Under the pieces are notes generated by a model that was not told where the DNA came from, ran no database searches, and saw only the letters and a list, made by a program, of their open reading frames with translations. From assembly GCA_036172245.1 (NCBI GenBank), contig JAYWIR010000010.1, positions 3,472,001 through 3,536,000 of the forward strand: a stretch of DNA of 64,000 nucleotides, read 5' to 3'. Source of the stretch: Raillietiella orientalis. Its lineage: Eukaryota. The position numbers and the translations under genes are program-made. Each line of letters begins with the position of its first letter. Within the stretch, counting starts at the first letter, position 1. This document shows, piece by piece, positions 900 to 41,039 of the stretch.

Positions 900-3800
900 A
901 TGGACCTGCAAGCAGATGATCCTTCATCCCTGGAATCTATACAAATTGCTCAATATGTAAAAAGCCATGTTAAGGAGATATCTCTTTTGTCGTACTTGTT
1001 AGGTAAACCAAAGTTAAATCCTTGTTCTCGTATCACCGAATTACGTTTGTTTCCGAGAAGGAGCACAGGCATTTTAAGGTGTAAATGAGTATTTTTTTCC
1101 CAACTAAATTTTGACACACGGTGCAGGGGTACTGTCATGTGGTATACGTCTCAATAATAGATTTCTTAAAGTCCTGCAGATGTACGACAAAGTACAAAAT
1201 TAAAGCTCGCATAAAAAGTGCAAAAGGCTTTTCTAAAAATTTTGTTCCATAAAAAAGAAATAGATGGTTTCCTTCGTATTAATTATTGAATAGTTATGAG
1301 TATATAATGTAATAATTGAATTTGAAATATTTGTTTATGCTTCATCATGTCAGAATGTGCTCGACATCCACGAATATGTTGCATCATATTAGTGCAGCAT
1401 ACATTAACAGAATATTGCACGTGCTTAAGTACTGATACCGGATTTAATTTTTCAGAACACAAAGATGAGGGACGTTGCTCTCTTCAGACAATACCCCGTC
1501 ACATGAGAAGAAGAGCTGCTAGTAATGATCCCAAAAGATTGCCCCACAAGTGGAAGAGTCTTCAGTCAAATTGCAATAAGTCAAAGTAAAAAGCTAGTAA
1601 TACCAATGTTAATTTTTTATTCATGAAAAGGAATCTCTTTAATAAACAGCTCAGCCAAAACTAAGAAGAAAAAAACGAAAGTTTCGTGTGAAGCACAGTT
1701 GAAGAGGAGAGAGAAAAATCAGTGGCTGGAAACACATTTGTGGCATGCTAAAAGATTCCATATGATTTATAAATGGGGTTTCAAAGTACCTAATTTTCCT
1801 TGTGATAAGAGTTATCATGCATGCTATAGAGCAGCCAAGAATTACTGTTTGCTACAGGTAGTTACTGTTGAAATTCATCAAAACTTTGCAAAAGACTCAT
1901 TTATTTTGAATAGCATTTCTCGTGTACTTGCTTCAAGGTCTGTCCCTTGAGGAGCTTTACTAATTACATGCAGTTTGTTCCTATTGTGATTCTACCTAAG
2001 TTGCATTGTTCAAATTAGTCTAGTATGGTTTAATTTTTTTTTGTCCATTTACTCAATATTTTGTACCCCGTACTGGAAATTTCATCAATGAAATGTCTTT
2101 CAGGATATTTCCTATCTTGGATGTATTGAAATATCTGGACCCCAACAAGTGTTAGTTAAGCATCTGAATTCTCTTTTGCAACCTGATGCTGCTTTTACTT
2201 TTAATGCAAAGATGTGTATTTCCGGATCTCGGGAAGGTTCTTTATTTTTATATGCACCTGGCAGTTATCCATTTGGTTGCATTGGCCCTGTGAAATTCTT
2301 ATGGCAGGCAGTTCCAGTTCCATACAGATTACCTGAGGTGCACAAACTATGGATCTGGTGCCATCCTTCTGTCTACTTGCGCATTGCACAAGAGATTTGT
2401 ACTGTATTTGGTATAAACTTTTCTGAATGTGATTCCAATACTATAGAAGAAACTTTTCCCACTTGTGAAGCATTCGTACCACCTCATTATACAAACGAGG
2501 CACTTGAAGTTCGAGTTGTACTTCTCAGAAAGCATTTAAATCGATTTGCTCTAAGAGGGTCTCTTTCTCATTCTGTTCTTGTTGAAAGTCTTAGAGTGTG
2601 GAATCAGGATGGTGCTAATAGGAATGTACCAGACTGGCTGGTAGACCATAAAAATGAAGTACTTCTTCAAGCTCAAAAATGGGATGTCCTGAAATGTTGC
2701 CAAAATGTAGCAGAACTTCCTGCTCACTTAGTGTTTGGCTTGTTGGTTAATGACCCACGTAAGCATTTGCCAAAGCAAAGGTTAAATATGAACAAAGCCG
2801 TTGTTTCTTCCACAAACATATCCTGGGATGCATGGGGTAAGCATTTATAGGATTCTCTTTAAACTGTTGCTTTTCTATATCTATCTTGAAAAGACTAGTT
2901 ACTTTAAACTTTAGGAGATTTTGCTTTTGTTTACATTTGAGAGAATTCCTATGTGATAAAAGCAAATTTAGTTTGAATTTCCCTTAATTATTACCTTTTA
3001 TTGTTTATTTTTTGTTTCAAATGTTTTTGCATGCTACTTGAAAATAATGCTCCCAGAATGGATGAATCTCACAATGGATTCATCATCATGAAAAATGCTC
3101 TCATTTTTCATGATGATGAATGGGAATTCGATAATGAGTATCAAAAAAAAATCAATTTGATTTTATCCTTTGATGTTGAAAAGAGATATGTGTTTTAACC
3201 ATGTGCTCAGATATTTGGCATTGAAAAACTAGACCTGCCCATTACTGATAAACATTTCACTCTGAGAAAGCAAATACTTTTATTTCCAAGGGAATGCTTT
3301 TGTCATCATCTAACATTTTAGTAAATGCATCACAAGCAACCACTGTATCAATTATATGATGTGAAGGGCATGACAAGTTAGAAATCATTAACTAAAGTGT
3401 AAAGTAGATTCCACAGAGACTTTATTTGTGGGCAGGAAGCTATTGCTTGTTTGTTTCTAATGCTTCTAGAGCCCTATATCTGAGAATCCAATATTTCCAT
3501 TTCATTACTATTGGATAGTTTTAAATGAAGTTAGGAAACATTTGAAATACACCTCAAATGTATTTTTATTTTTAGCCCCTATATGTATAAAAATGGGCTA
3601 AGTTAAAAGAAAGTAGATCATGCTAAATGAGAATTTGAGCATACACTTGCTCAGTTACAAGCTTACACAAGCTTGTAACTGAGCAAGTGAATTTGATTTG
3701 AGATGAATCAAAGAGAGCATACTTTGCAACTTGCTAATTAAATGAATAGGTAAAATTTCTTTTCCAAATAAATATTTTCTACGTACTATTCTTACAGAAA

Positions 3801-5599
3801 ATGTGTAGTGCAAATGCCTCCCAAACTTGCTGTGATATCCTTCCAAAGCTGGTAGACCTTGTAGTAAAAGATTTGTTTGCTTAGTTTGCAATTATAAATG
3901 TACATGTGAAACAGAATTAGCACAGAATAAACCAAGATTTGACATTTAAAATAGCATTTCTCCATAATGACAGCATTGTGACAAAACTTGCTTGATATCT
4001 GCTCTTGAATGCTTCCTAATCATTGTCATTGAGTGCACAATAATTGTAACTAAATGTGAATGTGCAAAAAAAAGAAAAAACAGAAATTCGAGTTACTTTG
4101 CGGTTATAATTAGGATTGAACCTTATATCTAGAGCACAGTGTTTATCAGCTCAACTACTACCAAGTCAGCTATAGCTATAAAAGTCTTAGCTAAAGTTTT
4201 TGTGAAAAGTTGAAATCACAAACTATTGTGTAATCTTAACCTGTCTATAACTAATGACTAAAAGGTTGCCCTTTTGTCACCATATGAAAATTATTTACAG
4301 TGGCAGAGACAACTTCTTTTACTTATGGACACAGTTGGTCTCCACTTTATGATTCCATAGTAAGGAAGAGTGTGAGTGAATGTTTGACGAAACATAGAAG
4401 TACATGTGTGGATTTTCCTATTCCCATTATTTTGGTACAGCAGCCTGGAGGAGTACAGCAAGCAAAAGATTCCTTGAGAAAACCAGGTATTAATGAATAA
4501 GATTGGAGTTTTCAAAAGCGGTGTTTAGGTTTTGCTAGTGGCTGGGATTTAATTTTACCCAAAAATTGTGGTATGGCTTTTTGGATTAGTTTGATCTACA
4601 GAGGTGCTAGAGCAGGAGGCTTACGAGAAAAATATAGTTTGGACTGTGAACAGGAACGGCCGTCTTTTCCTCTTCTTTTTCCAAATTGCCCAGGAGTAAA
4701 GGCAGAAGAAAATGCAGATTCCCATGAGATTGAGGAAAAATATTGGAGGTAATTCTTAGGGACTGATTTTGTATTGTATCACCTATGAATTTTTCAGGCA
4801 CCCACCTAGTCAGAGACCAAATTTCATTAAACTTGGCATCCAGTCTCCTTTCTGTTTCCCTTGGGATACTTTATTCTCATCAGAAGCCAATAGAAATAAG
4901 GATTTTTTTGTACTTACTGATAATATAGTGCTTGAGCAGTTGCAAAATAGTTTCAGATCAGTAGAACAAAAACCAACTAACTTTACTGATTCTATATATC
5001 AGTTTCTTGCCAAGTTCCCTTGTGCTCTTGTGCCAGTGGTGATTGAAATGATTTCAAAGGGCACACCAAAAAGACGAGCATTTATTTGTGCCCCACTTGA
5101 CTCGGATTTGCTTGCAGACAATGACCTGTGTTTTGTTGAAAATAGTAAACCTGATTGTAATGCTAAGAAAAGAAAGTTATTGCATGCAGAACATCAAATC
5201 CAACTGAAAAGGACTAGAAAGATTCGAAAGCATAATCAGCAGATTGTTTTGAAAAACTCATTTGAAAATTCCGTGAGTTCAAAAACTAAAGAGAAAGAAG
5301 ACACCTCGAATTTGATGCAGTGCATTTACACCAAAACCATGCAGAAACTGTGGCTTCTTGATTCAGAAGCTGAAGAAAATTTCTCCAGAACTGTTATAGG
5401 GTTTTTAAAATACGGGCAGTTCAGCTTCGTATCACATCATAATAAAGGAATAGGCCTGTGTTCATTGATTAGCCTGGTTAACGTAATATCAAAGCAACCC
5501 AGTAGACGAATTCCAATCGTTTTAGTGAGAAATGTGCATGAGCTTCATTATAGACGGGCATATTTACGTATTTTATCAACTGCCGATGTTTCGTTTTGA
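900..5599 (+). CDS. POP1: Ribonucleases P/MRP protein subunit POP1; 7 exons approx. 900-1002, 1456-1579/1585, 1650-1857, 2104-2836, 4301-4486, 4529-4748, 4798-5599
   Basis: POP1 motifs: [109 protein letters not shown], and C-terminal [22 protein letters not shown] introns have consistent phases. Confidence 0.95.
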
Positions 5600-5649
5600 T
5601 GGCACACGCTAACTGGTTTTCATTGGTACGTTATGTACAATGCATAAGT

Positions 5650-22700: not shown

Positions 22701-23392
22701 CACTCATTCAAGGCACATATACCAAAACATGAAAAATGGAATGCATGGCACTACTTTACTGGTTTACTGATGTGTCTATATAAATACAAGTGAATACTGT
22801 TACAGAATAACAGATTAAGATATACACAATGAAGCAAGGACCCTCTGAAGAAAACACTTTCTGGTGCATACCTCTATCACATTTGAATTAAATCTTGTTA
22901 TTGAATGAATGGATACATATTCATAATATACAATTTATATATAATATATATGTGCAATTTTAATATTATGTATCTTAATAGAACACTCAAATGAGTTGAC
23001 ATCACTGACAAAATACCACCCGGTACGCATTAGCACTTCTAGCACTAGGATATACTCTAGATTCAATAAAGAATTTGAGAATTCAAGAAAGTAATCTGGA
23101 TTCATCCAAATAATCAAGCATATGCCCTTTCATCTAACTCTGAACACATGCAAGTTTAAGTTTGTTTGTCGATGACTGAACGCAGACTGCAATTCATAAT
23201 CATACACTTCTTTATTTCATCCATCAGAAATGTTCGCTTAAAGCTGCAAAGTCATTATTAAAAGCGCTTGAAAGATGGTATTCGAAACAACACAGTATTT
23301 ATAAAGCATTTTCAAGAAAAACATCCCGAAAACATACCTAGCAACAAGAATATAGGATACAGCAAATCAAAAATCACAGGAATTCCTTGCAT
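7755..23392 (-). CDS. Piezo: Piezo-type mechanosensitive ion channel, many exons (first coding exon 23338-23392, second ~19630-19713, stop TGA at 7755-7757)
   Basis: N-terminus [35 protein letters not shown]. Internal motifs: [98 protein letters not shown]-terminus [28 protein letters not shown] introns checked in phase at many junctions. Confidence 0.97.
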
Positions 23393-23399
23393 CACTGCA

Positions 23400-23950
23400 A
23401 TCTAACTGCATAAAATATGTACAGTGTAGATTTCTGAAAATACAACATCAACGGGTGTACAAAATAAGGACGTACATCAAGAATCACCGCAAACGCTCTC
23501 ACAACACAGAACCACCCCAAATGCAAATATTTACATTTGCCGCACTTCCCTCGCACAGGCACAAGCCACGTTGCCGAACAAATTGCACTTGAAGCACCGA
23601 ATTCAGCAGGTAACATTTGTTTGTGCACAACAGCAGCGATACCATTTCGAAAGTGCAAAATTGTATTACATTACCTTATGTTGCAAAAAAAAAAAAAAAA
23701 TTTCATATTTCAAATAGCCCCAAAGCGGTCATTTTGATCCCATGATTTCGGATTTTATCACAATTGGCTGCATTTAAACATAACAAAAACGCAGTTGAAC
23801 AACTTTGAAAATTCGATGCTTCGAAAACAAACCCCAAACACCTGTGAGAATCGACACCCAAAGGATTGATGACAACCAGCATGATTGTCAGCCAGTCGTG
23901 ATTTGCACTTGTTAGAGATAATTTCTTTATCATTGTGTGGATGCTAAAAA
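23400..23950 (-). promoter_or_regulatory. Probable Piezo 5'UTR/promoter region
   Basis: CpG-containing island upstream of the Piezo ATG, in contrast to the CpG-poor gene body. An acceptor-like ttgcag lies 2 nt before the ATG and a donor-like AAG|GTAATG near 23675. Confidence 0.4.
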
Positions 23951-24049
23951 AAAGCTACTTTAGCTATTCCTCAGTCTAAAATGAAAGCAATGAAGGCACT
24001 TTCACCATGATTTAAACTCTCATCACATAGTAAGAGTGCCGTTTGTGTT

Positions 24050-24310
24050 GTGAGCTTTTGGGGGTTACCGGACACAAATGATGACGATGTTGAGGAAATT
24101 TTCGAAAAGCATACAAGCAAGTTTGGAATGTGTATGCAGAGTATCTTGGAAGTGAAACGAGAACCTTTTAAAACGGTGTTGTCCCATCAATAACAACATC
24201 CAACAAAATGTTCATGAAAAACAAAGAAAGGCAGTCGTAACAATAAACTCTACAAGGTGTGGCCTATAGGTACTAACTATCTCCACAATAAAGAAAAGAA
24301 CTGGTGGATG
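24050..24310 (+). mobile_element. Possible LINE ORF1 (RRM-like) remnant
   Basis: Peptide WGLPDTNDDDVEEIFEKHTSKFGMCMQSILEVKR resembles the GLP-E motif of CR1/L2/L1 ORF1 proteins and is followed by stops. Confidence 0.3.
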
Positions 24311-25499
24311 CATGAGCATAAGACGTTTAAGGAATTTAATATAATATAATCAAACCCAACCGAAAGTATACTTATTTTAGATTAGACTGTAACAGGCTAA
24401 AAGACTGTTTCCATGTAATTTGAAAAAAATAGTACTTAGAAGAGCACTGTGACATTTTTTAAGTGAGCTCTTTAGAATATAATTACGAGAATCGAAATTC
24501 AAATTTGGAAAGCTCATAACAATAAACATATTGTCGCTATTCCCTGCTGACGAGTTCAATTTGCTCATAGATTCTCTCATTTTACTCCTATCCTGGAAAT
24601 GATTAATAAATCCCTCCTACTCCCCACTGAAGTTTCTCCAAATCCTTTAATTCAATTTTTCTACTTCCTTTTAACTAAAAAGTCTAATTATATGTAATTT
24701 TCTCTAAGGTGAGAAAGACTTTTCCATATCATTTAAGACAAATAAGACAGATAGAGGACGTCGGAGTCCGCATAAGCAAATATAGCACCGCTGTCTTTTA
24801 AATTTCGTACTGTTCTTATAGGCCACTGGCACCTTCCTTAGTACTTTGATTGTTCTCTTTCATGGTTCTCTGTCGAATTTTCACAAAGCGGAAGACTAGG
24901 TCTTTTAACTCAGAGCATTCATGTCTGTTGGTCTTCAGTTGCACAGCAAACTTCAGTTTAGAAGGCCAATTTTCGGTCGTCTATTCGGCATTAATCCAAA
25001 ACGTTGCTCTTCTAGAGCTTCCAAGAGACTCAGCACCTGCTGTGCTTTTGTTTCTGCATGTGGAAAAAAGGCACATCCATAATCTGCAAATGCGATGCGA
25101 CTCACCTGCTCATCCTACCAGGCCCTCTTGAAAATCGTGCTAACACCGAAGGGGATAGGACTAAGGGCATCTGCTGAATACCTTGGGTTGATCTTTCTAT
25201 TGCTACAGAACCAAACGCTGGTGCTTACGGCAGTCTCCCCGTTTTTTAAGTATGCATTGAGAGTTCCTGATATTGGATGGATCTTTCATGCGTATAGTAA
25301 CACCTTTGGATTGACATTATCGAACGTTTTTTTCCTTATCCACGATAGTTGCTCTGATTTCTCACTGATGTTTGATATAATCAGTTTTTGGACACAAATT
25401 GGTATTGTCTATTCTCTTAAGAGCTGCAGCTTTCCGAAACGCTTTTGAAATGACAATTTCTATTGATCACATCTAGATTTTGGAGGTGGTCTTCAAATC

Positions 25500-26250
25500 A
25501 GCATTCATCAAAGCAACAGGTGCCAAGTTACTGAACACGATTAGTTTGCAAACAGTCCGTTCACATTGCAATCTTCGCTTACTTATTTGGTGCTATCCAG
25601 TTATCCGCAACCATGCATTTCCTAATTCCCCGACATACAGAGCTGAGCACTTGTAAGCGTCTTTTAAGACTATGACGATAGAGACTCAGTTTCATTGAAT
25701 GAATTTCATATTTATTATTGCTTGTAGATTTTCCTCAAAATGTTCCTTCAAAAACTGTCTCGTATTTAATGGGAATTTGAATGCTTATCACACTTGGGAA
25801 TGGGTTCTCTGAAAAACTCCCATTTCATTTGTTGGAATATACATCTTATGAAGGACTCGGATTCTTTGAAAACTTCTTTTAAAAATTCTCCCACCCATTT
25901 CTTAGTCTCGGAAAACAGAAATATAATTGGCATTCTATCTGTCTTAAAAGAACATTTTATTGAATGTCACTAATCAATTACTTTATCTGGACCATCAACA
26001 GTCTATACTCCCGAATTTCAATGGTACAAAGCAATGAGGTTGGGAAACAGCTCTTTTACGTACACTTTTTTTTTCTCCTGTTTGCAAAACGTGCAACACT
26101 GAATTGGTGTCACCCAACAAAAGTAAATGCTTTTTTCCTTATTTTGAAAACTTCTTCATGCATCGAAAATGGCGTTACATTTAAATTCGATCAGAAGATT
26201 GAAATATGCAACGCATGCAAACACATGGCATTGCTTGATGAGGATGGTTT
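25500..26250 (-). mobile_element. Possible Penelope-like element remnant (RT thumb and GIY-YIG)
   Basis: Minus-strand KCSALYVGE..LR (~25650-25600) resembles the GIY-YIG C..YVGET.R motif. An upstream degenerate FSMHEE..VRK segment is also present. Heavily interrupted. Confidence 0.3.
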
Positions 26251-29200
26251 GGTGCTTTCGGCTGTTATTTTATCCCCGTTATTTTTATTTTGCAAATTTC
26301 ATCGACTGATGCAGCACCTTTATCGACTTATGGAGTACCTAGAACTTATTTTCCAAGTTACTGCCGCATGAATCATCCATAATCGGAAAAAATACTATCA
26401 GGGCTAACTTTACATGAATTACGTTTCCATCTCCACATGGCTACTTGGTAATCTTAAGCAAAAAGAACTCTTTGAAGCTGATTAACAAATCGACATTTGA
26501 TGCTTCCTGCGAAAAGTGGGGCATGAAAAAACATCCAGACACCAAAAATCCCATTTTAGGATAAAACATATAACAAACAGTTAATTGTTTTTTATATCCT
26601 TTTACCTCGCCATATTAGGAACACGAAAACACTTGATTAACTGTAACAGCATTCAAGTATTCAAAAATTCAATCTTTTATCAAAATGTGGTCTCTAACAA
26701 AATGCACCACACATGAAATGAATGTAATTTAAATTAACCAACAGTTGCAACATTTTTATTTAACTATAAATGGAACATAACTGAAGATTCACTTCTTTAT
26801 AATTTGGCATATCACATTCTAAACTAAATGATAAAGAATAACTTTCTGAAGGATCACAGGAGAACTTTTTGGTATTCAATTATCCAACACATTGCTGGTA
26901 GGAAGCAGGTTCCCATTAATTACCTTCCTCTTGTGACCAGCAACATCAAAAGGAATAGGCTTCTAAAATACAAAATGCTAAATATAGATAATGACAAATT
27001 AAAACATGACTCAAAATCTCCATATCAAGACATCAAAGGCAACAATTATTTAATTAAAAAAACATTGACAGTATTCATAATACACACAAAAAGTCTGATA
27101 TGCACTTTCTGAAGTTGCTCTGAAAGCTCTCATTCTATAACCCATACCGAAAAATTCATAAAGTCTTTCCTAAGTTTAAGGAAACTTTAGTGAATTAAAG
27201 TGTCTCATATGGATCAGTTATGCAACATTTATTCACAATGCATTTCAGCCTCATACATTACAACTTTTAAAAAAGAGCTAATGAAATTTCAATTTTCAAA
27301 TGACTTCAAATACAACTGACTGAAACTCTTTTGTCATCAATTCTATCAGCATTTATCGAATGTAGTTTATGCTCATTTTTGCTAATGTGACAGTATCAGT
27401 ACACGTAATATTTCTGTTAACATTCCTTTGACAATGATTCCATCATATTCCTACCTACTGACAATCGTTACACATTGCAGCATCAGTCACAACAATAACT
27501 TTTTATTGCTTAAAATAATAGTGTAACTTTGCCTAATATAAAGCATTCAATTATTATTTACGCATGAGACATTTTGATGGCACATATCCTGACAAAAGGA
27601 CACTCAATCTAGTCCAATCATCATGAACTTTCACTTTGCTGCTTCCGTCTATCTAAATACGATTTAGACATCGCTCATAATTTTTATTTTTAAAGCCACT
27701 AATTTCTCCTATTTTCCTAGTCGATTTTATAAAATAGACCTTTGGGCAGTATGTTGATACATAACTCCTACACTTATTCCAATTCATACTGACGAGTTTA
27801 GCAAACAGTCAATTCATGTACACATCGACTGCAAAAAAGATCGCGAAAAGACTCAAACTTGGCAACTGGAAAATCAAATAAAAAGCGGACATGGTTTACT
27901 AAACTGTCAGTTTCCATTATCTTGAGGAATTAAAAAAAACAATTTCAACATGCATGTGCATGCAGATTTTATACTTCATGTCATAAGCATTCATGATTTC
28001 TTTCTTTTAAGCATTAGTAAATTCAAGTTACATATAATAAAGTATTTAGTAAATGATGCAAGTTAAAAAATGCCACCATTCTCAATGATTTTTTTTTGTT
28101 TCAAATTGCTTGAGGACACCTAAACATGGCTTATTCTTCTGAATTCTACCAAAAAATCTTTATTGGCTAACAGATAATTCCCATTCTCAATTAACAATGG
28201 GGATCTTCAGATATATTTCCAAAGAACAAAATATGTGAATGTACATGAAAGGCAGCTTTCAGGTGTTAATAATTGTAAACACGTATCTGCTGACCCTCGC
28301 AAGCTTGAATATACTAGGTTGGCAAAGACAATATCATATTCCCTATGAATATAAAAAGCAGCACCCCAAATTCTGATAAAATGGAAATTTTCTACAAAGA
28401 ATGGAGTATTTTGAAAAATATTCAGTAACTTTTAAGAAATCATAAATTCATTGAATGAGAATTGCCTCACTTGATGTGAATTCAACATCAACTATGAAGG
28501 GTCCAAACAGAACCTGATTCACTCTATGACACTTCTTTAGAATTCATACAATTACACTGCATGTCAAAAAGACATCAAAATATCAAAAAAAAAAAAAAAA
28601 AGCACAATAATCTTACCTATTCAATATGAAAATTTTTAATAGTAATTCTATAATCAATTTGTGGTTGGATGAGAAGCTTCAGCACTGAAAATGAAAACTT
28701 GCAAAGGTAATAAATAAACAAATTGGATGATCATATTAATCTGCGATTTTATGGAAAGATGCTGATCCAAGAACATTTCTGCAATTGAATGGTCAAAAAA
28801 GAAGTCACATAGGCAATGTAACATATGTCTTATAATTGGAGTTATAAATGAAATCCTCTGGAAGGATCCCTAATCCTGACAGGAGACAAATAACTTATCG
28901 AATTATTTCAACCAAACTATTTGCTTATTGAACAAATAACAAGCTAGTAGGAAATAATTTTGAATTTAAATACAAATGTTTGAAGAGCACACCTGATAAG
29001 ACCTTTTGATAGAAAACGAAACGAATGGGCTTGAATTCAAGAGTCAATCTAGAGTAACCTATAACCAACCTATCATTGTAACTCATTTCAATATAGGCTA
29101 GAATTACGTGTCATAAACTAACAGCTTATGATAGCAAGCATCCATGAGGAAAAGTGAGGGGGAAGGAATATGAATTCAAAAATATGCATAAAATAACACA

Positions 29201-29882: not shown

Positions 29883-32010
29883 TTAAAGATACACAGGGTG
29901 CATGCTAGAAATTCTTGCCTTGTTGACAAGCTGAGGACAATTGTGTTCCACAATGTTCCAGCCTGTAGGAAAATGACATACAGTCTGCTCAGCCAATGCA
30001 AGCAAACTATCTCTACTGTACACTTTGCAGGTACCTAGCAAATGGAAGTTTAGACACACTAAGTATTCAAAAACTTACTTGGAGGAACAACTGCATCTTT
30101 GCTTGCATTATCGCATTCCTTGCTTGCACCTTGAAAAGAAGACTGAAAGCCAAATAGAATCATGCTCTCCCAACACACCTACATACTTTGCAATTTTCTT
30201 CATTGGCAGTTTGACTACTGCAAGAACTATCACTAAAATCATTAATACTAAGCTCTTGCAAAGTTGACAGTGTTGACTGATCTTGATCTTGTGAATTAGA
30301 GAAAAACTCATCCAGTAACAATTTAGCCATCTTTTATAAACACAAATCAAATCATGCTTTCCAACATCCATGCATCTAACCTTGACTAAATTATAACTGC
30401 TTCCTATAATACGCAAGGTATCTTCTCCAACAACAACTGTATATTTGTATTCACCTAAAGACTCTTCATGTTGCAAAGTACCATGAGATACTGACAAAAA
30501 ATTTTCTTCTGAGGTTCCGCTGTTCAAGCTGTTGCTGGAGCCAAACTCAACATGCTTTTCTCGTATGGGAGAAGCATTGCGGAAAATTGTTTCGTGTATC
30601 AGCTGCTTGGCATATGAAATGTTATCTTCTGACTGTCCTGCTATCTGCACCAATCTGTCCTTGACTTCAGGATTGACTAAAGCAAAAGGAAATCGCCTTC
30701 TCAATAGATGCCCCATTGCACAGGTTAGGAGAAGCAGCAGCGTTAGGATTACATGTGTGGTAAGCATTAGCAGAGCCACTCATTATGACATGCCAGATCT
30801 TGCCCACAAATCCCTTTACCTCGCTGAAAAGATATAATTGTATCGCTAAGCTTTTCGATCATGTGCACTCGTCTACCTTTAATGCCCATTACTGAAGACA
30901 CAAAAAGACACGTTAGAACATCTATTTCAGCCTGGCTCACCCAGAATTTAATGCACCAATTACCTTTGCCAGAGTCCGAATTACGGATGAAAATTTCATC
31001 TTTTAAATATCCTTTACCAAACGATTTTGCTGGTTTAGGGAATTTGCTGACTAATTTTCCAGCATCATTTTGAGATAAGACAGAATGATACACCTTAGAT
31101 GACTGTACTCCGATGTTAGATGCAAGTGTTTGTTTTGAGTGAAGCAACTGTGAGGCTGGCATAAGATTTTCCTCACTCTATAATTATATGTCATGACACA
31201 AGAATCAGTGTATTTCTTACTTGAAGAATAGCAAATTTCTGCTGATAATAGTTGATCATATTATCACTGGCTTGCCAATTTTTGGCTCTCATCTCAACCA
31301 GTTCAAGCAACTGGAGCCTGCTGATCATGTCGAGTCGTTCATCCCGGCACCCATTGCGAAACACAATGAATTGTCTATCCAAAGCATCTTTGTATTTGTT
31401 TTCCAAAAATATGCCCTTCAATTTCATGTGAGAACACAGAAAAGAAATCCTAAACTGTAGTCCACCATCAAACTGGCCAGCATTCAGAAGTTGACACACA
31501 ATTTCAGCTTCTTCCAATACTTGCTCCAGAGCAAGTGGAGCTGGAAATTACAAACTAGCATTTTGATTCAATTAAATTTTACAAACTGAATATTGCAAAT
31601 CTAGTTAGGTTTGTCTAATTGATAATTCATTGCATTGGATTTTTCTGAAGCCTGGAACTTGCACATTTATTACTGTTCCTAGAGGACAAATCAATTATCC
31701 CAGACAATCAGATAATGTTGGATGCAGTGAAATGTGAAACAGGAGCGAAATCTTCTCTTGATATGGCACTCTGCTTTCTCAATTATTAAGAAAGGCCATA
31801 CCAAAGATAAGAACTGTGGAAATGTCTCAAAACTTAAGTCAATGGATCTTACGCCAAACAAAAAAAACGCCAAACAAAAAAAAGGAAAAAAACAAATTTA
31901 TATTCCATCACTTTAGTTCTATGAAGAGCTGGGAATTGCTTACAATTACCTCCTATACCATCAGAACTCAAAGACGTTTTGAGTTGCCGGGGTCGTTCGA
32001 ATTTTCTCAT
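29883..32010 (-). CDS. mxt: eIF4E-binding protein Mextli (MIF4G-like, KH and C-terminal 4E-binding motif); exons approx. 32010-31950, 31540-31221, 31177-30964, 30891-30820, 30676-30381, 30331-30187, 30142-30079, 30034-29883
   Basis: MRKFERPRQLK start, KDALDRQFIVFRNGCRDERLDMISRLQLLELVEMRAKNW, KDEIFIRNSDSGKVMGIKGRRVHMIEKLSDTIISFQRVNP..RLVQIAG..ETIFRNASP, GEYKYTVVVG..MAKLLLDEFF and YSRDSLL..FPTGW..PQLVNK all match Drosophila Mextli as I remember it. Splice phases are consistent. Confidence 0.92.
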
Positions 32011-32056
32011 GGCTTTAATCGATTTAATGTCAAGGTTTACAGATCAGTGAGCCTAG

Positions 32057-32168
32057 CTGAATGCAAACAAAACAGGTTCGAATTCCTTAATAATGGAGGA
32101 GGTGGTCTATAGCGGATTACTATCCTACCACCTAATAAATAAGTCATTCTTAATACAGTTAATTTATT
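32057..32168 (-). promoter_or_regulatory. RBM39 poly(A) signal (32163-32168) followed by a 3' splice acceptor (AG at 32057-32058) upstream of the Mextli ATG
   Basis: The minus strand reads TAA, 24 nt, AATAAA, U-rich ttatttatt, then cctgttttgtttgcattcAG, 46 nt, gccATG. Confidence 0.6.
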
Positions 32169-32192
32169 CAGTGGCCAAGACATTCAAATGAT

Positions 32193-35131
32193 TTAGGCAC
32201 GTCGAGACCGTGGGTATAACAACTGTGTGGCCACCATGGCCTCCGGAAACAAATTATGATAATTGAGCACAGGTACATATGCTGCAGTAATAACTTTTCC
32301 TATTTGAGAAATATAAAATAAAAACAGAAATTTACAAATAAGAGGCTTACCAGCAAACCACCGACCGTGCAATGCATTGACTGCTTGTACAGCAGCAGAT
32401 ATAGATGGGCATTTGACATATACATTGCCCTGAGGTGATGCTTTATCTACATACACATGAACACAACCCCCATTGCGATTACATTCTTCAATCACATCAT
32501 CTCTGATTTCATCTGACCATGTAGGATTTGTTTCTCTAAAACGAAAAGTATAGATTCTAAATCATACCACACTTACGAAGATGGATCAAACATGTTTGAG
32601 AGCATAAAACACTGGGTAGCAATCGGAGGAGCCACTTGTTGTTGTGGAATTAGAGGTGCCATTTGTAAGGCAGCTGTGGCTGCTGCAGGGATCTCCATAC
32701 CAGTTCCTTCAGCCAATTTTGCCATTAACTGCAAACGGCCAGTAGCACCAAGATCTATGCCTGTACGGTCAAGCTCATCATTATCCAATAAAGAAGGACC
32801 AAGTGATGTATCGGTACGTTCAGTCACATGACCAACTTTCATTGGTCTACCAGCTAACTCAAATCCATTTAGCTGTTCCAAGGCTTTCTTAGCATCTTCT
32901 GCATTATGAAACTAAAAGACAATGTACCAACATTCATCCAAATGTCTTCTGCTTACTGTTATAAATCCATAACCTTTTGAGCGTCCTGTTTCTGAATCCA
33001 TCATTAACTGGATACTATCAATCTAAAAATCAACAGCTCCATTTAGCAATCAGTGTGCGGATATTGTCAATCAACTACTTTTCCAAAAGGCTCAAATATC
33101 CCACGAAGCATATCTTCTGTGATGTTAAAATGTAGAGAACCAACATACAGCCTCATTGGGCCAGTCATTCCTTGTCTCATGGAGGCTGAGTTGGCTGCAG
33201 CAATACGATTCTTTTCAGCATTAGTTGGCTGAACAACAATGGGAACTCCAAGTAACTTCTGCCCTGATAAACCAAGAGCCTATGCAACACAGCAGTGAAA
33301 TATTCATAAGATTTCCATTTTACCAGAGGAACAGCTTCTAGATTTGCAAATTCAACATAAGCAATGCCTTTTGAACGACCAGTTTTTGTGTCACTGATGA
33401 GCCGGACATCTCGAATCTAAATAAAAAACTTAAAGGAATGTTAATTGAAAACTGTTTCACCTTTCCAACAGCTGAGAAAAACTCTTCCAAGTCACGAGCC
33501 CGAACTCTCTGTGAGAGCTGCATGCAGAACACTGTTCGCTGGTCACGCTCTTCAGGTGTCAATATCTCTAATTCTTCTCTTGGTATACTATTTGCACATT
33601 CCTGTTATGAGCACTTTGCCTTTCAAACCTGATGGGACTGGGAGTACGGCGTTTTCTTCTAGGCGAGGGTGGACTCCGTACTCGCTTAATCTCAGGACTT
33701 ATCCTTTTTCTCTCACGGGACCTGCTACGCCTTTCTCGTCTTCTTTCCCGAGATCGCCTGCGTTCTCTGGATGTAGAACGTCGATCTCTTGAGTGCGATC
33801 GTTTTCTACTGTGTGTAGAATGTCTTCTTCTAGAACAAGACCGCTCTCTTGATCTAGAACGTCTATCCCTTTTTTTATCTTTATCTCTACTTCTTTTGTC
33901 TCGATCCTCATCTCGATCTCGACTCTTACTTCTTCTCTTTTTTTTACTGGAAAGAATTAGTTTACTAATGAGAATTACAAAATGTGAATTATTACTTGGT
34001 CTTGTTTCTTCTCTCATTCACATCTATGCCATTTTCAGTTGACTTTCTGCTTGGACCTTCCTACAAAACAGTACATTGGAACAAACAACAACAAACAAGT
34101 GATGAGGGGGAGAAAGAAGAACAAAATGATTAATGATGATATTACGTTAGTCAATGAGCAATTAATACATCATTAGATCAGCTGCACCCTTATCTAGCCT
34201 GAAAATAACGGTGTGCCCAATCCTCCCTAGGAAAACAAAGGACTACAATGCACAAACGGCTATACTTACTGCCAGGGAAGAGTGGTACAAATGGCATATA
34301 CCCTGGCTCAATTGTGAAAAAATCCAAGAAAGCCATCAGAAGTATCAAAATACATTGTGCGGAATCTACTTTACCTAAGAATGAAAGTTTCTTAGCAAGC
34401 TGATCAGCCATAGCAAGTCAATCTGCTTATAACTTACTAGATGCTGTTTTCAGAATCAAAAGACCGATAAGAGTGTTGCAAGTATTAGAGATATGTGCAT
34501 CTGAGAATAAAACATGTTTCCCATTTTACAACAACGTTTTTAATAATATAAGCCAATAATGACTTTTCTGTAAGACTCCTTGATGCTAAAGATTACCAGC
34601 ATCTTAATGAATCAGTGTAGTAGCTTTTTCAATCAATAAAAAACAAATCAACAAAGTGTAATGGACGACTCTTTCCCCATGCCTACAATGGAAAGTCTCT
34701 TTCATGTAGGTGCTGCAATCATCTTTCCCAAGTCAGCTGCACTACATCAACCCTACGTAATAAAATTTTATAAGATTTGCGAAACTACATGGCATACACA
34801 TCATTCATTTTAATCAATTCGACAAAACAATGCTCATTGTGATTAAATTTCCAAATTCTTGAAGTAAATGTGTATAATTATGTTCATATATTTATACCTC
34901 ATGATAGCAGCAGCACATGGACAGATATGCACAGGAGTTTCACTGAATAAATCTACGATATAAAGTTTTTTTTTTATCATAATATATACCAACATAGTTA
35001 ATTATGAGAAGCTTCAATGATAGATCAATTAAAGCACTAAAGCTTGTGATTATAAAATATTGAATAAAACTTACTCCTTTCTTAAATGGGGCTTCCAACA
35101 ATTCCTCAACATCTAAATCATCTGCCATCAT
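32193..35131 (-). CDS. RBM39: RNA-binding protein 39 (CAPER-alpha/Caper): RS domain, 2 RRM and UHM
   Basis: MADDLDVEELLEAPFKK start, RS-rich exon, TPEERDQRTVFCMQLSQR, RLYVGSLHFNITEDMLRGIFEPFG, EQLNGFELAGRPMKVGHVTER, GRLQLMAKLAEGTG, IATQCFMLSNMFDP, GNVYVKCPSI..LHGRWFAGKVITAAYVP. Introns are mostly 41-56 nt, plus a ~1 kb first coding intron. Confidence 0.97.
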
Positions 35132-36338
35132 TTATTTTTAATTAAAGTATTCTAAAAAAGATGAATTTCAGAGATGAAAATTTCTGTTTCTAAAACAAGC
35201 CATGTGGTAATTTCATTTCCCCAAGTTTTTGTTTTCCCTTGTATGTATGCAACCCTTTTGAAATTATCAAGGATGAATTAGTTAAAAGTTGCAAATTCAT
35301 TTTACTTTCACACATTTCTCATTTATCCATGAAAACATTACCATATGAAAACATTATCACACAATGATGACACAAGAAAATATGGATAAAACACTTTTAA
35401 CACACAAATACTGTAAAGCCATACCAAACTCATGTACATGCAAATCATGTATATTACATAAGTAACACAGACTAAAACTGTTTCAGTAAACCATCTACAT
35501 GTGTATCAGTACAGAACAATGCTAACTGACTATAATGTTGAAACAGTCATTTAAAAATGCCTGTTTTGAGCAAGTCTGGCATGGAATCATTTTTTTTCAA
35601 GTCCCAATTATTACAGCAATCAATCAGCCTTTATCCTTTTATATACCATTAACAGCTAACTACGAATTGAAGTGAAGTTGAAATTGAATTGAAGTTGGTT
35701 TCTGTTTAAGTAACAAAGAAATGTACCATTCAAATCTGAAAGCAATCCAATAACATCTTTGCTGTACAAGTGATGTGTTCCATTTACAAACTCTGGGTCA
35801 ATTTTCTTGACATCTCTACTCTTTGTTATTTAACCTTTATTTGTAATTACCAATTTTTGTGTACCACTTGATAAACAATGCACTGACACATTAAAATTTA
35901 TGACAAGAAAAACTTGCATAAGACTGATGATTCTTTATCATACCAGATTTACTTTCATGAATATTTGCTATTTTAGTTGAAGAGAAAACTAGAAGCCATG
36001 GAACAAATTGTAAAAATGTGTGCTTGTGCATTGAAAAATAAAAAAAAAAGCACCTAATTATGGAAACTTTTCATATTTAATTTAAGTGTTACCTTTATAT
36101 ATGGCCATGACATATATATATGTGATATTAATAAATATCTAAATGTTCCAAAACTATAACCTGTGACACTATATGCTGTAACAACAGACATGATAAATTA
36201 ACTACCACCACATATTGTAATCACATGCACACAAAACTTACACATGTAGTTAGATACAGTATAATCAAAAATATTTAAAAAATATTTTAAATATACATCG
36301 GTGAAATTCAACTTGAATGAAAAATTTCCAGAACTTAC

Positions 36339-36389: not shown

Positions 36390-39300
36390 CTAAGAGAAAA
36401 AATTATGATCTAGAAAGATAACACACATTCAAATGGAAAGATTGGTTCTTTTCCTTCTGTTGCACACTGTACTCAGTTTGTAAACCGATTTTTAGAAAAT
36501 CATGTAAATGAACACTTTATATGGTCAGTTTTACATTAACTTTTTTCATAATATTTCGCAAAAATTGCTTCCTTTCATAAACATGTTCATGCATTAAATT
36601 TTGTTAACCCTATAACCAGTAGTGACAGACATACAGTACTCCTATAGCATCCTGAATGCTGCACTACCTTAATTCACTTTCAATTCTGTTCAGAATTTTA
36701 CTACAGTACATGCCTAATTTCTTGTGATGCGTTTTTCGCATTATAACTTTTTTTTTCAAACATAAAACATTCTGAATGAATAGATAGCTAATTTTTTTGC
36801 TCTTCATTTTGTTTTCATGAGGATTCCATACTCATGAAATTATCATGAACATGCAAAGATTAAATCAATACAATAACCATGCTTCTTATTTTTTTTGTTG
36901 CATTTTTTATACACCAAATACTGCTAACTGCAACACTCGGTTCAAAATCCGAATACTTTTAACTTAAGTCTACATACAATATGGAAGCTTTACTTTCCTG
37001 CTAGATATTTTTTATCCATGATTTTGAATTATCACGATTCTGAAATACTATTATTACATTAATGTTAATTCAAATTTGCTATATGCCAAATCATCGTCAA
37101 CACTTCTGGAGGCAATAAATACATGGCCACTCATCAAACACTAAATAAACTTATCTGCCCTTCCCCCCTCCCTCCTCCAAAAAACAATCGCTAGAATCAT
37201 CAGAGACAAAATAATGTGAATTACGACCTTCGATTTTGTTGCATAAGCTGACATGAAACTCAAGTTCTGAAAACAATGCTTTAAAGTTTATTTTTATGGC
37301 ATAGAATGTCAGCATTTTACTTTCTGATGAAAGATGCTACAATAAACAGCAATAATTATCTGTGCTGAATCAAAACTAGGATTTACGGAGGCACTACATT
37401 TTTTTTATTCAAAATTGTGTGTTAAATTAAGATTTTGAAATTTGTAAATGAATCAAAGCCTGACAACAGAATTTTCGCCAAATCTCATTAATCATTTACT
37501 GGTCAACCGGATTTGAAATATGGACAAAGCCAAAAGCCAAGACACTTTCTAAGTTGATCTAAATTATTTGTATATTCCAAATTTAACCAAACTGCCCAAA
37601 ACAGTTTTTACTAGGTCTCTATGAATATCTAAATTAAGCACATAAAAATTTGCTTAACTGCATACTACTATTTAAATAATTCTGCTTAATAATAATCAAA
37701 TTGAGAATTCAAGCATGCATTCTGACACTTCTACCAATAACTATAAAGGGCAGTTTTGCATGTTGGTACCAATCTTAACAAAATGCTAAAGAAATAAAGA
37801 CCTAACTCTTTTACATATTTGAATATCTGACTTATTCTGACACTTTACAATTTAACTCATTATCTGCACTCCATTCTGCACTTCGTGAGCTTTAATATGT
37901 TATTTATTAACGAGCCAAGATATATTTAAGGGCACTTAGATTCAAACAAATTTTAGTAACAGGGTTGTTTGAAAATAAAAAAATCCAATATAATTTCAAA
38001 AACTTGAGATGCTGAATTGATTTTACTTTGCACATATGAAGTTCTGCACAAATCTGCAATTTACTTTCAAATCAGTCAAAACAATATGTATGCATATTTA
38101 TACCTTGCATCTACATGCTTGTCACTTTTTTACCCACTGTTTCACAAACTAAGAATTACAAAAGTTATATACTTAATCTTCATACTTCAGGTGGATGTTA
38201 CAACTGAAGAAGACATTAGCAAAAAAACTAGAAACAAAAAACTTTTAGATTCCAATGCCTCAATTTTCTAAGGTTAAATTAGAAGTACATTGTTATATAT
38301 ACACTTAATTCGCTGACTTAAGGCTACAATTTAGTGAATAGCTTCGCTTAATGGTTTTAAATAATGAACAGCTAAGTAACGCACTTTCATCACACATATA
38401 ATGATGAACTCATAATGAACAGGATCTGCTTCATTTACACAGCAAGCAATAAAAAAATAGAATTTAACTATATTAAATATCACTTAGATTTATAATGACC
38501 ATGGACTCCATCTCGTAAATTCATCATTCCATTCAAAATCCAAAATGAAGCCATTTCACCTCACACTAACTTTAATTTACGTCACGAACAGATGAGGTAT
38601 ATATGCACATAAGGTACTTAATAACACTTATGCTCTTAAAGGAAATAATGCGTACTTATTTTGTAACTAGGTTAAGTTTAGATTTTGTTTTAGCATAACA
38701 GAAATTCAATACTTAATGTGCAAATTAAGTATCCTAAGAGCCACAACGAATCCGAAATTAATTTCCCAACAAAACATAGTTTTCACACAAGAATACATTT
38801 TTTAATGTCGCCAACATAAACGCAAAGGAAACGCATAAATGCAATATTGCCAACAAATAAGAAATAAAGCTAATCCGTTATTGCGTGAGACATGGATTGT
38901 TCTATATATGTATAGAAAAATGAGCTTGTCTTCAATAAATATTATCCTCTGGTAGCTTTAATCAATATTATCAAACCAAAAAAATGCATTTCTTCTTAAT
39001 ACCGAGAGTTGTGTTACTAAAATATTTAAATATTGATTTAAAAAGCAAGCTTAAAAAAATGATAACAAAGCGCGTGACTCAAAGTAAAAAAAAGTTACCA
39101 ATATGGTATATTCCTCATAATTCCTTCACTGCTAATACCGTTAGTGTGGAAATGCATTCTAAACAACTTTCGTGAATTTTTTTTAGGCAAGGAACATTCG
39201 TGGATATCGAATATCAAAATCGCAAAAAAAGATTGAGACAAAATAATCTATTTCTAACAATAGGATAAGTGATTCATAAATAACAAAATCAATAATTTTG

Positions 39301-41039
39301 GAGTTAGACAGGCGAGTTGACGGAACTGATGAGAAAAATGAACGAAACTGTAAAGGTGAGAAGTTTTGAGTTGTTCTAAGCTGCACAAATCCTTGGTGTA
39401 AACATACTTCGTACACTGGTCCACGAGATAGAATTATGGCATCAAGGCAACAGTGTGAAATAGAAAGGAGATGGGACACTGAATCAGACTTTATACTGAT
39501 AAAAATAATAACATAAAGTATTACACAATTACTAGATCGTAAAATTCAAGGAATGCACTTCATCGTTGTTGTATTCAGTTGAAATATTGTTGCTTAATGG
39601 AGAATTTCTTCGAGTTACATGATACATTAAATCATGCGTTTGAATATTATTGTCACTATTTAATGTAAGAACTTGTTTGGCACGCATTCAAATTATCTTC
39701 AAAATAAATAAGATCTTCAGCGGATTACTTCAACAAAATTTATATGCATTCAATTGATACCTTTACTCCTCCGTCGGGATAAAAATTTTGGATTGTTGCC
39801 TCATATTGTTGCTGGCAAAAATGAACATTAAAAATCAAAACATGGCTGAAAAAAATTAAAAGCAGAATACTTGCCATTTCTGTGCAGATAATAAGCACGA
39901 TTCAAAGATTTGCTTTTTACACCTTAATTTATAAAAAATTTTAAGACAATTCTCAAAACTATCAATTGCAGAGTCTGAATGAATTCTGAATGAACACTTG
40001 AAAAAAATGAATTAAATTTGTAAGATGATATCATCTCATTTGTATGCGGGGAGGTATGAATTTGTATTTTCCATATTTGAATTGTTCGTTGTTTTTTCAT
40101 TGGAATTAGGATGGAAATATTTTGAATACTTGAAGCATAGAGACAGAAATGGCCTTTGATGAGTATTACCTATATAGGGTGAAGTTTTCGACACAACTGT
40201 TTGAAAATGAGAAATAAAAGGAAAAAAATTGGTTTATTTGCAAACATAATATTAAACAACTGTCTTCATGCTGTACATTCTCTAGTTTCTTTGAATTCGA
40301 TAGAAAATGCTTGTAAAGTACTGCAAGCTGAAATTTTCTAGCTTAGATGTTTTGACTTGGCAATCTTATTGATAATAAATTTTGATTAGTATTTGATTCT
40401 CCATCATCCATGGTTTTTATTTGATTTCTTTGGTATTAATATCATTTCACAAATCTTCTAATATATTATATGTATCAATAGCTGTAAATACACGAAGGCT
40501 TACGGACCTCCTATTATGTAGGGATTTTGCATTTGAAAGTTAGCACAGAGCACTAACTTATATAATTTAAAGAGCCACCAATGAGCAAGATGCAGCTTGC
40601 CACAAGAAGTTGGAAATGGAAGAAGTGGTATACAGATTTTGTGTACGATACGCGCATCAGAAATATCTGTTCTAACTCCCCTGTTGTCTCAGGTTTGGTG
40701 CATTCTTCGCCTTGACATTAGCCCAACACGATCCCTGGAACCCAGAAGAGAGGTATTCGACAAGTCTTTGTGATTCCATCTTCCAACAGCGGCAAAAGCA
40801 ATGATCCAAGATGTGCCTGTTGGGATGCTAGAATATCTCGAAGAAAAGTATCTTGTATGCGTAGATTGATGTGCATCTACATAACAGATATGTGAATGTT
40901 AGTATACTTACGTTATTCAGCCTCTTTCTAGGCATTAAGTTCTAGAACATGGAATGGGCCCTATGACATCTGCTGCCCATGCGAAAATGGAAAGGAGACG
41001 TTCAGCACACCCAGAAAGCACAAAGAAGAGAAACACAAT

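Follow-up and report, generated by a model that had tools for sequence, protein, structure and literature searches.

A Stem-Loop Shared by the RBM39–Mextli Spacer and Other Tight Gene Junctions of Raillietiella orientalis Suggests a Leader-Resolved Operon

In Raillietiella orientalis the genes for the splicing factor RBM39 (Caper) and for the eIF4E partner Mextli lie head to tail on the minus strand of a 64,000-nt stretch of DNA (assembly GCA_036172245.1, contig JAYWIR010000010.1, positions 3,472,001 to 3,536,000), which we refer to as the window and by whose positions coordinates are given. The genome searched comprised 210 Mb in 491 contigs. The spacer between the two genes contains a stem-loop that was also found at three other gene junctions. 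This shared hairpin is new here and is, as judged from sequence, a testable operon marker. We consider it probable (about 0.6) that RBM39 and Mextli form an operon that is resolved by trans-splicing of a leader RNA, with the hairpin acting as the equivalent of the Ur element of nematode operons. Trans-splicing is what we infer, since no leader gene was found.

Results and Discussion

The RBM39–Mextli Spacer and Its Stem-Loop

The initial annotation had described two genes on the same strand with 182 nt between the RBM39 stop codon and the Mextli ATG at 32010, an AATAAA 24 nt past the stop codon (32168–32163), a gap of about 105 nt from there to a splice acceptor, and a distance of 46 nt from the acceptor to the ATG with an in-frame TGA in between. 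All of this can be read in the sequence, and the gap was measured as 104 nt to the CAG at 32059–32057. The elements of the spacer are the following:

32163–32168, minus strand: AATAAA, presumed to be the poly(A) signal of RBM39 and located 36 nt 5' of the hairpin core
32100–32133, minus strand: stem-loop with 5' arm AGGTGGT (32133–32127), inner hairpin and 3' arm ACCACCT (32106–32100)
32057–32073, minus strand: pyrimidine tract and CAG acceptor, candidate trans-splice site, 44 nt past the hairpin, score 7.4
32011–32056, minus strand: 46-nt 5' untranslated region (UTR) with in-frame TAG (32055–32053) and TGA (32046–32044), followed by codons ending in KSIKA

By chance, AATAAA occurs in 16 of 344 46-nt bins of the AT-rich non-coding DNA of the window. 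The acceptor was scored with a matrix derived from 11 true acceptors, and its value is equaled by 22 of 792 background AGs. The 46 nt from the acceptor to the ATG are free of any other ATG; two upstream ATGs in the spacer (32183 and 32147) precede the acceptor.

The core arms of the stem-loop are GGTGGTAG and ACCACC (32133–32100). A 51-nt piece of the spacer folds with −13.8 kcal/mol (z −2.5). The predicted pair probability of the stem was 0.76–0.99, and the three donor-like GTs that it would bury (32131, 32128 and 32120) were at most 10% unpaired in three contexts. When the spacers of different junctions were compared side by side, a common element became visible, consisting of GGTGG or GATGG followed by [GT]AG, an inner part that varies, and ACCACC or ACCATC. 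We scanned 982,327 bases of this genome, a figure that counts overlaps and contains 359 kb of AT-rich sequence, for the motif G[AG]TGG[GT]AG-N9-26-ACCA[CT]C. Four distinct matches were obtained, all in head-to-tail spacers of 77–202 nt, and the reversed and the complemented controls gave 0 and 0 matches. The motif was present at four of the five junctions examined, namely at Mextli and at three others with spacers of 77, 121 and 202 nt.

The position of the element is shared as well. All four motif-bearing spacers contain an acceptor, and the 3' arm ends 37, 44, 46 and 51 nt before it. AATAAA or AGTAAA is located about 35–45 nt before the 5' arm at three junctions, and at the REXO4–CNBP junction the arm overlaps the stop codon. 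One of the junctions, at which a gene with a UCH domain ends 202 nt before a gene with an RNase_T domain (L124, 959–1162; G000:C1 near 5946600), had been picked from the layout of open reading frames (ORFs) before the motif was known there; its spacer has 12 bases identical to the Mextli spacer in the 5' arm and 7 in the 3' arm. In an alignment of the four sequences 24 of 28 cells are paired, with one compensatory change from G-C to A-U. At the sequence level, these comparisons show that the element is shared across junctions in sequence and position, and the folding predictions indicate that it likely forms an RNA structure.

No match to the motif was found in 192 kb of metagenome Mextli loci, in any of 47 such loci, in 94 kb near control genes, or in any of the 5' regions of control genes with promoter-like CpG content (see below). 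About 340 kb beside the window and beside the Ku80 cluster, mostly GC-rich and repeat-like, contained no new strict match, and a covariance model run over 406 kb gave no further credible site. Three look-alikes were discarded. A hairpin in L117 (272–321) had a model E of 0.09 and no genes nearby, a weak candidate in L092 was checked and dropped, and a site in L147 (2388–2410), with AATAAA just upstream, lies downstream of an Sm gene with no downstream ORF seen and was taken as chance. A transposon footprint was ruled out, as repeat-rich DNA lacks the motif and the distance from motif to acceptor is fixed. In a CTCF-like reading of the 5' arm, the upstream half of the CTCF consensus is missing.

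CpG Content as a Promoter Proxy and Other Tight Junctions

We used the ratio of observed to expected CpG (o/e) as a proxy for promoters, and one zone stood out upstream of RBM39:

38400–40000, minus strand: CpG-rich zone, likely promoter of the unit

The o/e was 0.89 over the 1601 nt of this zone and 1.14 over 38800–39400, against a gene-body mean of 0.35. As controls we used 25 of 44 loci from the LSM and histone-fold families, with windows anchored on the domain start; we left out same-gene repeat exons, probable histone genes, and matches that were GC-rich or unverified. In 22 of the 25 controls the best 600-nt o/e reached 0.73 or more; the other three were a locus with 0.58, the Ku80 cluster with 0.38, and one with 0.26 whose window was anchored on an internal exon. 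Mextli reached 0.70 and CNBP 0.68. The CpG proxy leans against a full promoter at Mextli.

The Ku80 and UCH clusters both have a single CpG-rich zone before the first gene and low CpG across the downstream genes, the UCH cluster being a further candidate operon. In the cluster of Ku80, CHRAC1 and an EF1delta-like gene, CpG was low over all three genes. The REXO4–CNBP spacer of 77 nt contains no GT with a positive donor score. Gene names at these junctions beyond the Pfam domains are putative, and the EF1delta-like ORFs have no Pfam match; the UCH-domain gene we take to be USP25/28-like and the RNase_T gene REXO2-like. In Pfam searches with 300 of 498 filtered flanking ORFs, none of 19 LSM loci had a same-strand neighbor within 1.5 kb, and 2 histone-fold loci had one. 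Genes in this genome are not, as a rule, tightly packed.

Donor-Like Sites, Acceptor and Start Codon of Mextli

The acceptor had been called unpaired, which was too strong. With the donor-like GTs at 32128 and 32120 it would form introns of 72 and 64 nt. Their scores of 7.3 and 6.7 fall into the span of 0 to 9.0 observed for 12 true donors (leave-one-out), and a donor of such score is present in 30 of 345 background 40-nt bins. The acceptor lies 64 nt 5' of the conserved P of PRP, and an acceptor lies 61 nt 5' of this position in four termite-like metagenome loci, which are 74–93% identical to Mextli of Zootermopsis. This comparison covered 10 loci: besides the four at 61 nt, one had the acceptor at 93 nt, three failed the filter and two were without a motif match. 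By eye, the acceptor in L073 and L074 is located 7 nt before the ATG, and L058 has a short 5'-UTR intron. In the termite-like loci L076 and L079 the CpG o/e rises to 1.1–1.3 about 3 kb upstream. From the acceptor position and the upstream CpG in termite-like loci it follows that the ancestral Mextli gene probably had its own promoter and a non-coding first exon, together with this acceptor.

The ATG at 32010 aligns with an internal residue of Mextli homologs. Among the 44 of 147 homologs that have the N-terminal block, all have at least 7 residues before it and 42 have at least 13, compared to 5 in the window. The five in-frame codons upstream of the ATG encode KSIKA (within 32043–32011, minus strand) and still resemble the conserved Mextli N-terminus, with KSVKA or KSVKG as the counterpart in ticks; the score is attained by 44 of 9166 stop-free background 5-mers, for a span that was picked after inspection. 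No in-frame acceptor was found between the TGA and the KSIKA codons. To judge from this alignment, either the ancestral start codon was lost or Mextli uses a non-AUG start.

The RBM39–Mextli Neighborhood in Other Species

The neighborhood in other species was read from the proximity of accession numbers and locus tags. The accession numbers of RBM39 and Mextli directly follow each other in Zootermopsis, Cryptotermes, Periplaneta and Gryllus longicercus; the locus tags are two apart in Coptotermes, and in Hetaerina, where both genes are on one chromosome, the numbers are close. The genes also share a chromosome in Homalodisca and Schistocerca americana, with numbers further apart. The accessions are non-adjacent in Strigamia, and the contigs that carry the two genes differ in length in two scorpions, in a barnacle and in five hymenopterans. 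RBM39 was not detected in any of the 47 metagenome loci with Mextli, a region of up to 3.8 kb upstream being covered in the termite-like ones. With regard to synteny and spacing, the two genes are neighbors in several polyneopteran insects, but the 182-nt spacing is not common to the metagenome Mextli loci. The neighborhood may be ancient.

Search for a Leader RNA

The Rfam model of SL1 (RF00198) had 0 matches in the genome, the nematode SL1 22-mer had 0 matches at 2 mismatches, and an Rfam scan of the window revealed no leader gene. A pattern combining a splice donor and an Sm site, in a single Sm variant genome-wide, gave 54 matches vs. 53 in the control, with no repeated family. The flanks of 5S ribosomal RNA (rRNA) loci (11 of 12 fetched) and of U1 arrays contained no leader gene. 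A derivation of the promoter of small nuclear RNA (snRNA) genes yielded no common upstream element for the best U1 and U2 matches, which resemble retroelement ends. Among these loci (L014–L033, L034–L044), the best U2 matches mainly comprise the 3' half behind A-rich ends, and the U1 copies are in tandem arrays of 5–11 kb or directly before ORF-like GC-rich DNA. Both look like snRNA-associated retroelements; the Sm site of U1 is AATTTTTAAG. The 5S rRNA genes (L006–L013; G000:C24, C40) form inverted repeat units, each with a decayed second 5S copy, and in L008 a U4-like RNA lies 1.2 kb from 5S.

Processed gene copies and transcripts were inspected for leader sequences as well. For the 5' end of Mextli the genome search gave 1 match, the gene itself, and hence no processed copy. 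A processed, intronless copy of CNBP is present in GC-rich DNA (L128, 1372–2130; G000:C22 near 3060300), with a more decayed partial copy in front of it. It has drifted by A-to-G changes at 42 of 187 positions and T-to-C changes at 41 of 162, and its 5' flank has no match in the genome or in 20 kb around the source gene, the copy being too decayed to decide. No shared leader was seen by eye in 13 transcript-like Mextli contigs from metagenomes.

An Operon Resolved by Leader Trans-Splicing and Its Alternatives

The initial annotation had viewed the two genes as an operon-like pair. The shared stem-loop at four of five junctions, the weak promoter mark at Mextli and the single CpG zone in two other clusters support this, but a leader RNA gene did not turn up. 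We propose that the likely CpG-rich promoter, some 3.5 kb upstream of RBM39, would drive co-transcription of RBM39 and Mextli. The precursor would be cleaved and polyadenylated shortly past the AATAAA (32168), freeing the RBM39 mRNA, and the uncapped downstream RNA would begin a few bases before the GGTGG...CCACC stem-loop. If it folds in vivo as predicted, the stem-loop would be a dedicated intercistronic signal that stalls 5'–3' decay and/or masks the donor-like sequence, blocking the use of 32057 in cis. A capped leader RNA, whose existence we infer, would then be trans-spliced onto 32056 to give the Mextli mRNA. The acceptor would be that of a former Mextli 5'-UTR intron, reused after loss of the first exon and the promoter. 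More tentatively, and in our estimate somewhat short of even odds, a deep-branching arthropod would have evolved leader-resolved operons independently, with a signal of its own in the form of a donor-hiding stem-loop about 45 nt before the acceptor; the old neighborhood would have collapsed, and the Mextli promoter and first exon would have been lost with the acceptor kept. It had also been suggested that the arrangement couples a splicing factor to an eIF4E partner functionally. Apart from the old neighborhood in some insects nothing pointed to this; the other junctions join unrelated housekeeping genes.

Several observations weigh against an operon. The main evidence comes from the donor scores, the U1 pairing and the old acceptor in homologs, which favor a plain cis intron: the GT at 32128 pairs with the 5' end of the genome's U1 at −7.7 kcal/mol (true donors −3.0 to −8.0), and the simplest view of the ancestral Mextli acceptor is that of a cis site. 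At the junction CpG rises in a narrow bump, with an o/e of 0.86 over 31950–32260 (311 nt), a level approached in just 9 of 88 bins of gene body. No leader RNA gene emerged with one Rfam model and two patterns or in the 5S and U1 flanks. The motif was defined on three of the four sites, and its loop limit was widened after the fourth, whose loop length is one base off the first pattern. The Ku80–CHRAC1 junction is without the compact hairpin, hence the count of four out of five. Covariation was not significant (132 of 500 shuffles), the folding of whole spacers does not exceed that of shuffled sequence (z −0.7 to +0.2), and a weak hairpin was obtained for CNBP (z −0.56).

Mextli could have a compact promoter in the RBM39 3' end, with a tiny non-coding first exon reaching to 32129 or 32121 that is spliced in cis to 32056. 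The inverted repeat would then be a DNA promoter element or a donor with a chance partner, and a hybrid with a leader-spliced acceptor is included here. The donor scores of 7.3 and 6.7, the good U1 binding of one donor and the local CpG o/e of 0.86 fit this explanation, as do the 72-nt intron, which matches Mextli introns of 72–73 nt, the acceptor at the same position in termite-like loci, which have a CpG-rich zone some 3 kb upstream, and the short 5'-UTR intron of L058. In Drosophila it is ordinary for a 3' UTR to overlap the 5' UTR of the following gene (PMC4528330), and internal promoters are present in more than a quarter of C. elegans operons, although these go along with spacers of at least 500 bp (PMC5025045). 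However, the motif is also present at two junctions with a CpG o/e of 0.18 and 0.32 and at one without a usable donor, it is absent before control genes with promoter-like CpG, and all three GTs are predicted to be paired. We regard an internal promoter as unlikely.

A shared promoter and 5' exon would make RBM39 and Mextli alternative products of one gene: a donor in or upstream of RBM39 would be spliced in cis over the RBM39 body to 32056 whenever the poly(A) site is skipped. This would account for the weak promoter mark without any leader RNA, none having been found; donor-like sites are seen by eye near the CpG zone, and 130 Drosophila genes are recorded with shared promoters and 5' exons (PMC4528330). 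On the other hand, every RBM39 exon would have to be skipped, and the fixed distance from motif to acceptor and the three-gene clusters are left unexplained, so that we give little credence to this possibility. The flank of the processed CNBP copy, again too decayed to decide, was unmatched in the 20 kb around its source. Splicing of RBM39 coding exon 1 to 32056 would run into the two in-frame stops past the acceptor and cannot yield a fusion protein, and long RBM39 database entries are without Mextli; an RBM39–Mextli fusion protein was therefore ruled out. We consider it equally improbable that a dicistronic mRNA is kept whole, or cut without a leader, with Mextli translated by re-initiation or internal entry and the hairpin serving as a translation or cleavage signal. 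The lack of a leader gene would agree with this, and 159 such pairs are known from Drosophila, with obligate stop-to-start distances of up to 319 nt (PMC4528330). Yet the AATAAA between the genes, together with the acceptor, argues against a dicistronic main product, and two upstream ATGs (32183, 32147) precede the acceptor, which would be left without a role even though all four motif spacers have one. Introns 3' of the RBM39 stop codon would, in addition, invite nonsense-mediated decay.

Relation to Known Operons and Leader Systems

In C. elegans operons the downstream genes are trans-spliced after cleavage upstream (PMC5025045). The Ur motif is located about 50 bp before the trans-splice site, the median distances from poly(A) site to acceptor in nematode operons are 124 and 129 bp (PMC7668243), and the Ur element, once the spliced leader (SL) 2 small nuclear ribonucleoprotein binds it, is reported to block XRN-2 (PMC7725455). 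The arrangement in R. orientalis resembles the SL2/Ur operons of C. elegans and Trichinella spiralis (PMC7668243, bioRxiv 10.1101/642082) in the head-to-tail order of unrelated housekeeping genes, in a poly(A) signal about 100 nt before the acceptor (104 nt here, counted from AATAAA), and in a shared element about 40–50 nt before the acceptor that is missing before the first gene. It differs in the element itself, which is a G-rich stem of 5–7 bp with a donor-like 5' arm and not the nematode Ur TAYYTT. TAYYTT is absent from the Mextli spacer and present in one of the four motif spacers. In this arthropod host, unlike in nematodes, no SL1- or SL2-like gene was found (SL2 model not searched genome-wide). 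As TAYYTT and nematode leaders are absent, the operon of R. orientalis would work like the nematode type without being a member of it.

The SL operons of Ciona, Oikopleura and chaetognaths likewise combine short same-strand spacers with housekeeping genes; a spacer cut-off of 250 bp was used for chaetognath operons, and no operon-specific leader is needed in these three groups (PMC7986045, PMC12460157). Unlike here, most Ciona operons are without intercistronic DNA. Leaders were shown by RNA in all three, and a shared intercistronic hairpin is not described in the accessible parts of these papers (PMC7986045, PMC12460157). Amphipods and copepods are the only arthropod groups named with leaders in the excerpts at hand (PMC5111886, PMC7986045), and operons are stated as not reported in either group (PMC7986045). 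The dicistronic or shared-promoter pairs of Drosophila are also close same-strand arthropod genes with similar distances, but they give mature dicistronic mRNAs or are spliced in cis, are leaderless, and have no common intercistronic element as far as the available text goes (PMC4528330). A literature search on leaders and operons in myriapods, chelicerates and arthropod genomes retrieved no paper on the subject, and in a further search Mextli was mentioned in none of the 20 papers listed out of 195; subscription journals were mostly outside both searches.

If the proposed operon is real, leader-resolved operons exist in arthropods, where none are reported even for the leader-bearing groups according to the accessible part of PMC7986045. 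The stem-loop would be a second, independently evolved intercistronic signal beside Ur and would allow a test of whether guarding uncapped RNA is a general requirement. The specificity of the motif (4 matches in 982 kb, all at junctions) would permit genome-wide prediction of operons without RNA, and the element can be mutated in reporters. The insect RBM39–Mextli neighborhood, in which Mextli has apparently kept its promoter, would provide a before-and-after view of the birth of an operon.

Genes of the Locus and Their Surroundings

The coding regions at the locus are the following:

32193–35128, minus strand: RBM39/Caper coding region, from tblastn, a spliced model with one terminal stop, PF15519, the acceptor list and the motif scan
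31950–32010, minus strand: first coding exon of Mextli (MRKFERPRQLK...), from a conserved block match and in-frame splicing
30350–31540, minus strand: Mextli exons 2–5 (N-terminal helical domain, KH region), from tblastn, spliced translation and homolog searches

The identities assigned to the two genes were confirmed. RBM39 extends from the ATG at 35128 to the TAA at 32195–32193, its linker exon matches PF15519, and it is up to 87% identical to arthropod RBM39, with every named entry among the best 120 listed matches being from an arthropod. In a quick tree of 61 rows the window sequence was a long branch in no strongly supported group, with Strigamia nearest by path (81% identity). On these grounds the host is a deep-branching arthropod. 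The first exon of Mextli fits the conserved block K-L-E-[KR]-P-R-P-L-K and is spliced in frame to the next three exons. The second exon shares 49% identity with Mextli of Zootermopsis (E 2.7e-21). RBM39 has its own acceptor at 35153–35152, 23 nt 5' of its ATG, where the motif scan found no hairpin. The six RBM39 introns from RRM1 onward have 41–56 nt each. The intron after coding exon 1 (34061–35074, minus strand) is about 1 kb long, far above these neighbors, and may contain a regulatory or poison exon, as reported in human RBM39 (PMC10477243). Between the RS region and RRM1 (33631–33588, minus strand) the frame is continuous only with an intron of about 44 nt that has a weak donor, unless the assembly slipped here.

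Beyond Mextli a gap of more than 10 kb, with CpG-rich stretches at 23200–28000, is followed on the same strand by a Piezo gene (PF12166; 7900–19200, minus strand). It is faced by a gene at 1300–5600 on the plus strand that we presume to be POP1-like; the exon tested had no Pfam match. The genome apparently consists of AT-rich, CpG-poor housekeeping islands inside GC- and CpG-rich repeat-like DNA (L178–L212; C10, 3272001–3472000; C56, 680001–821747).

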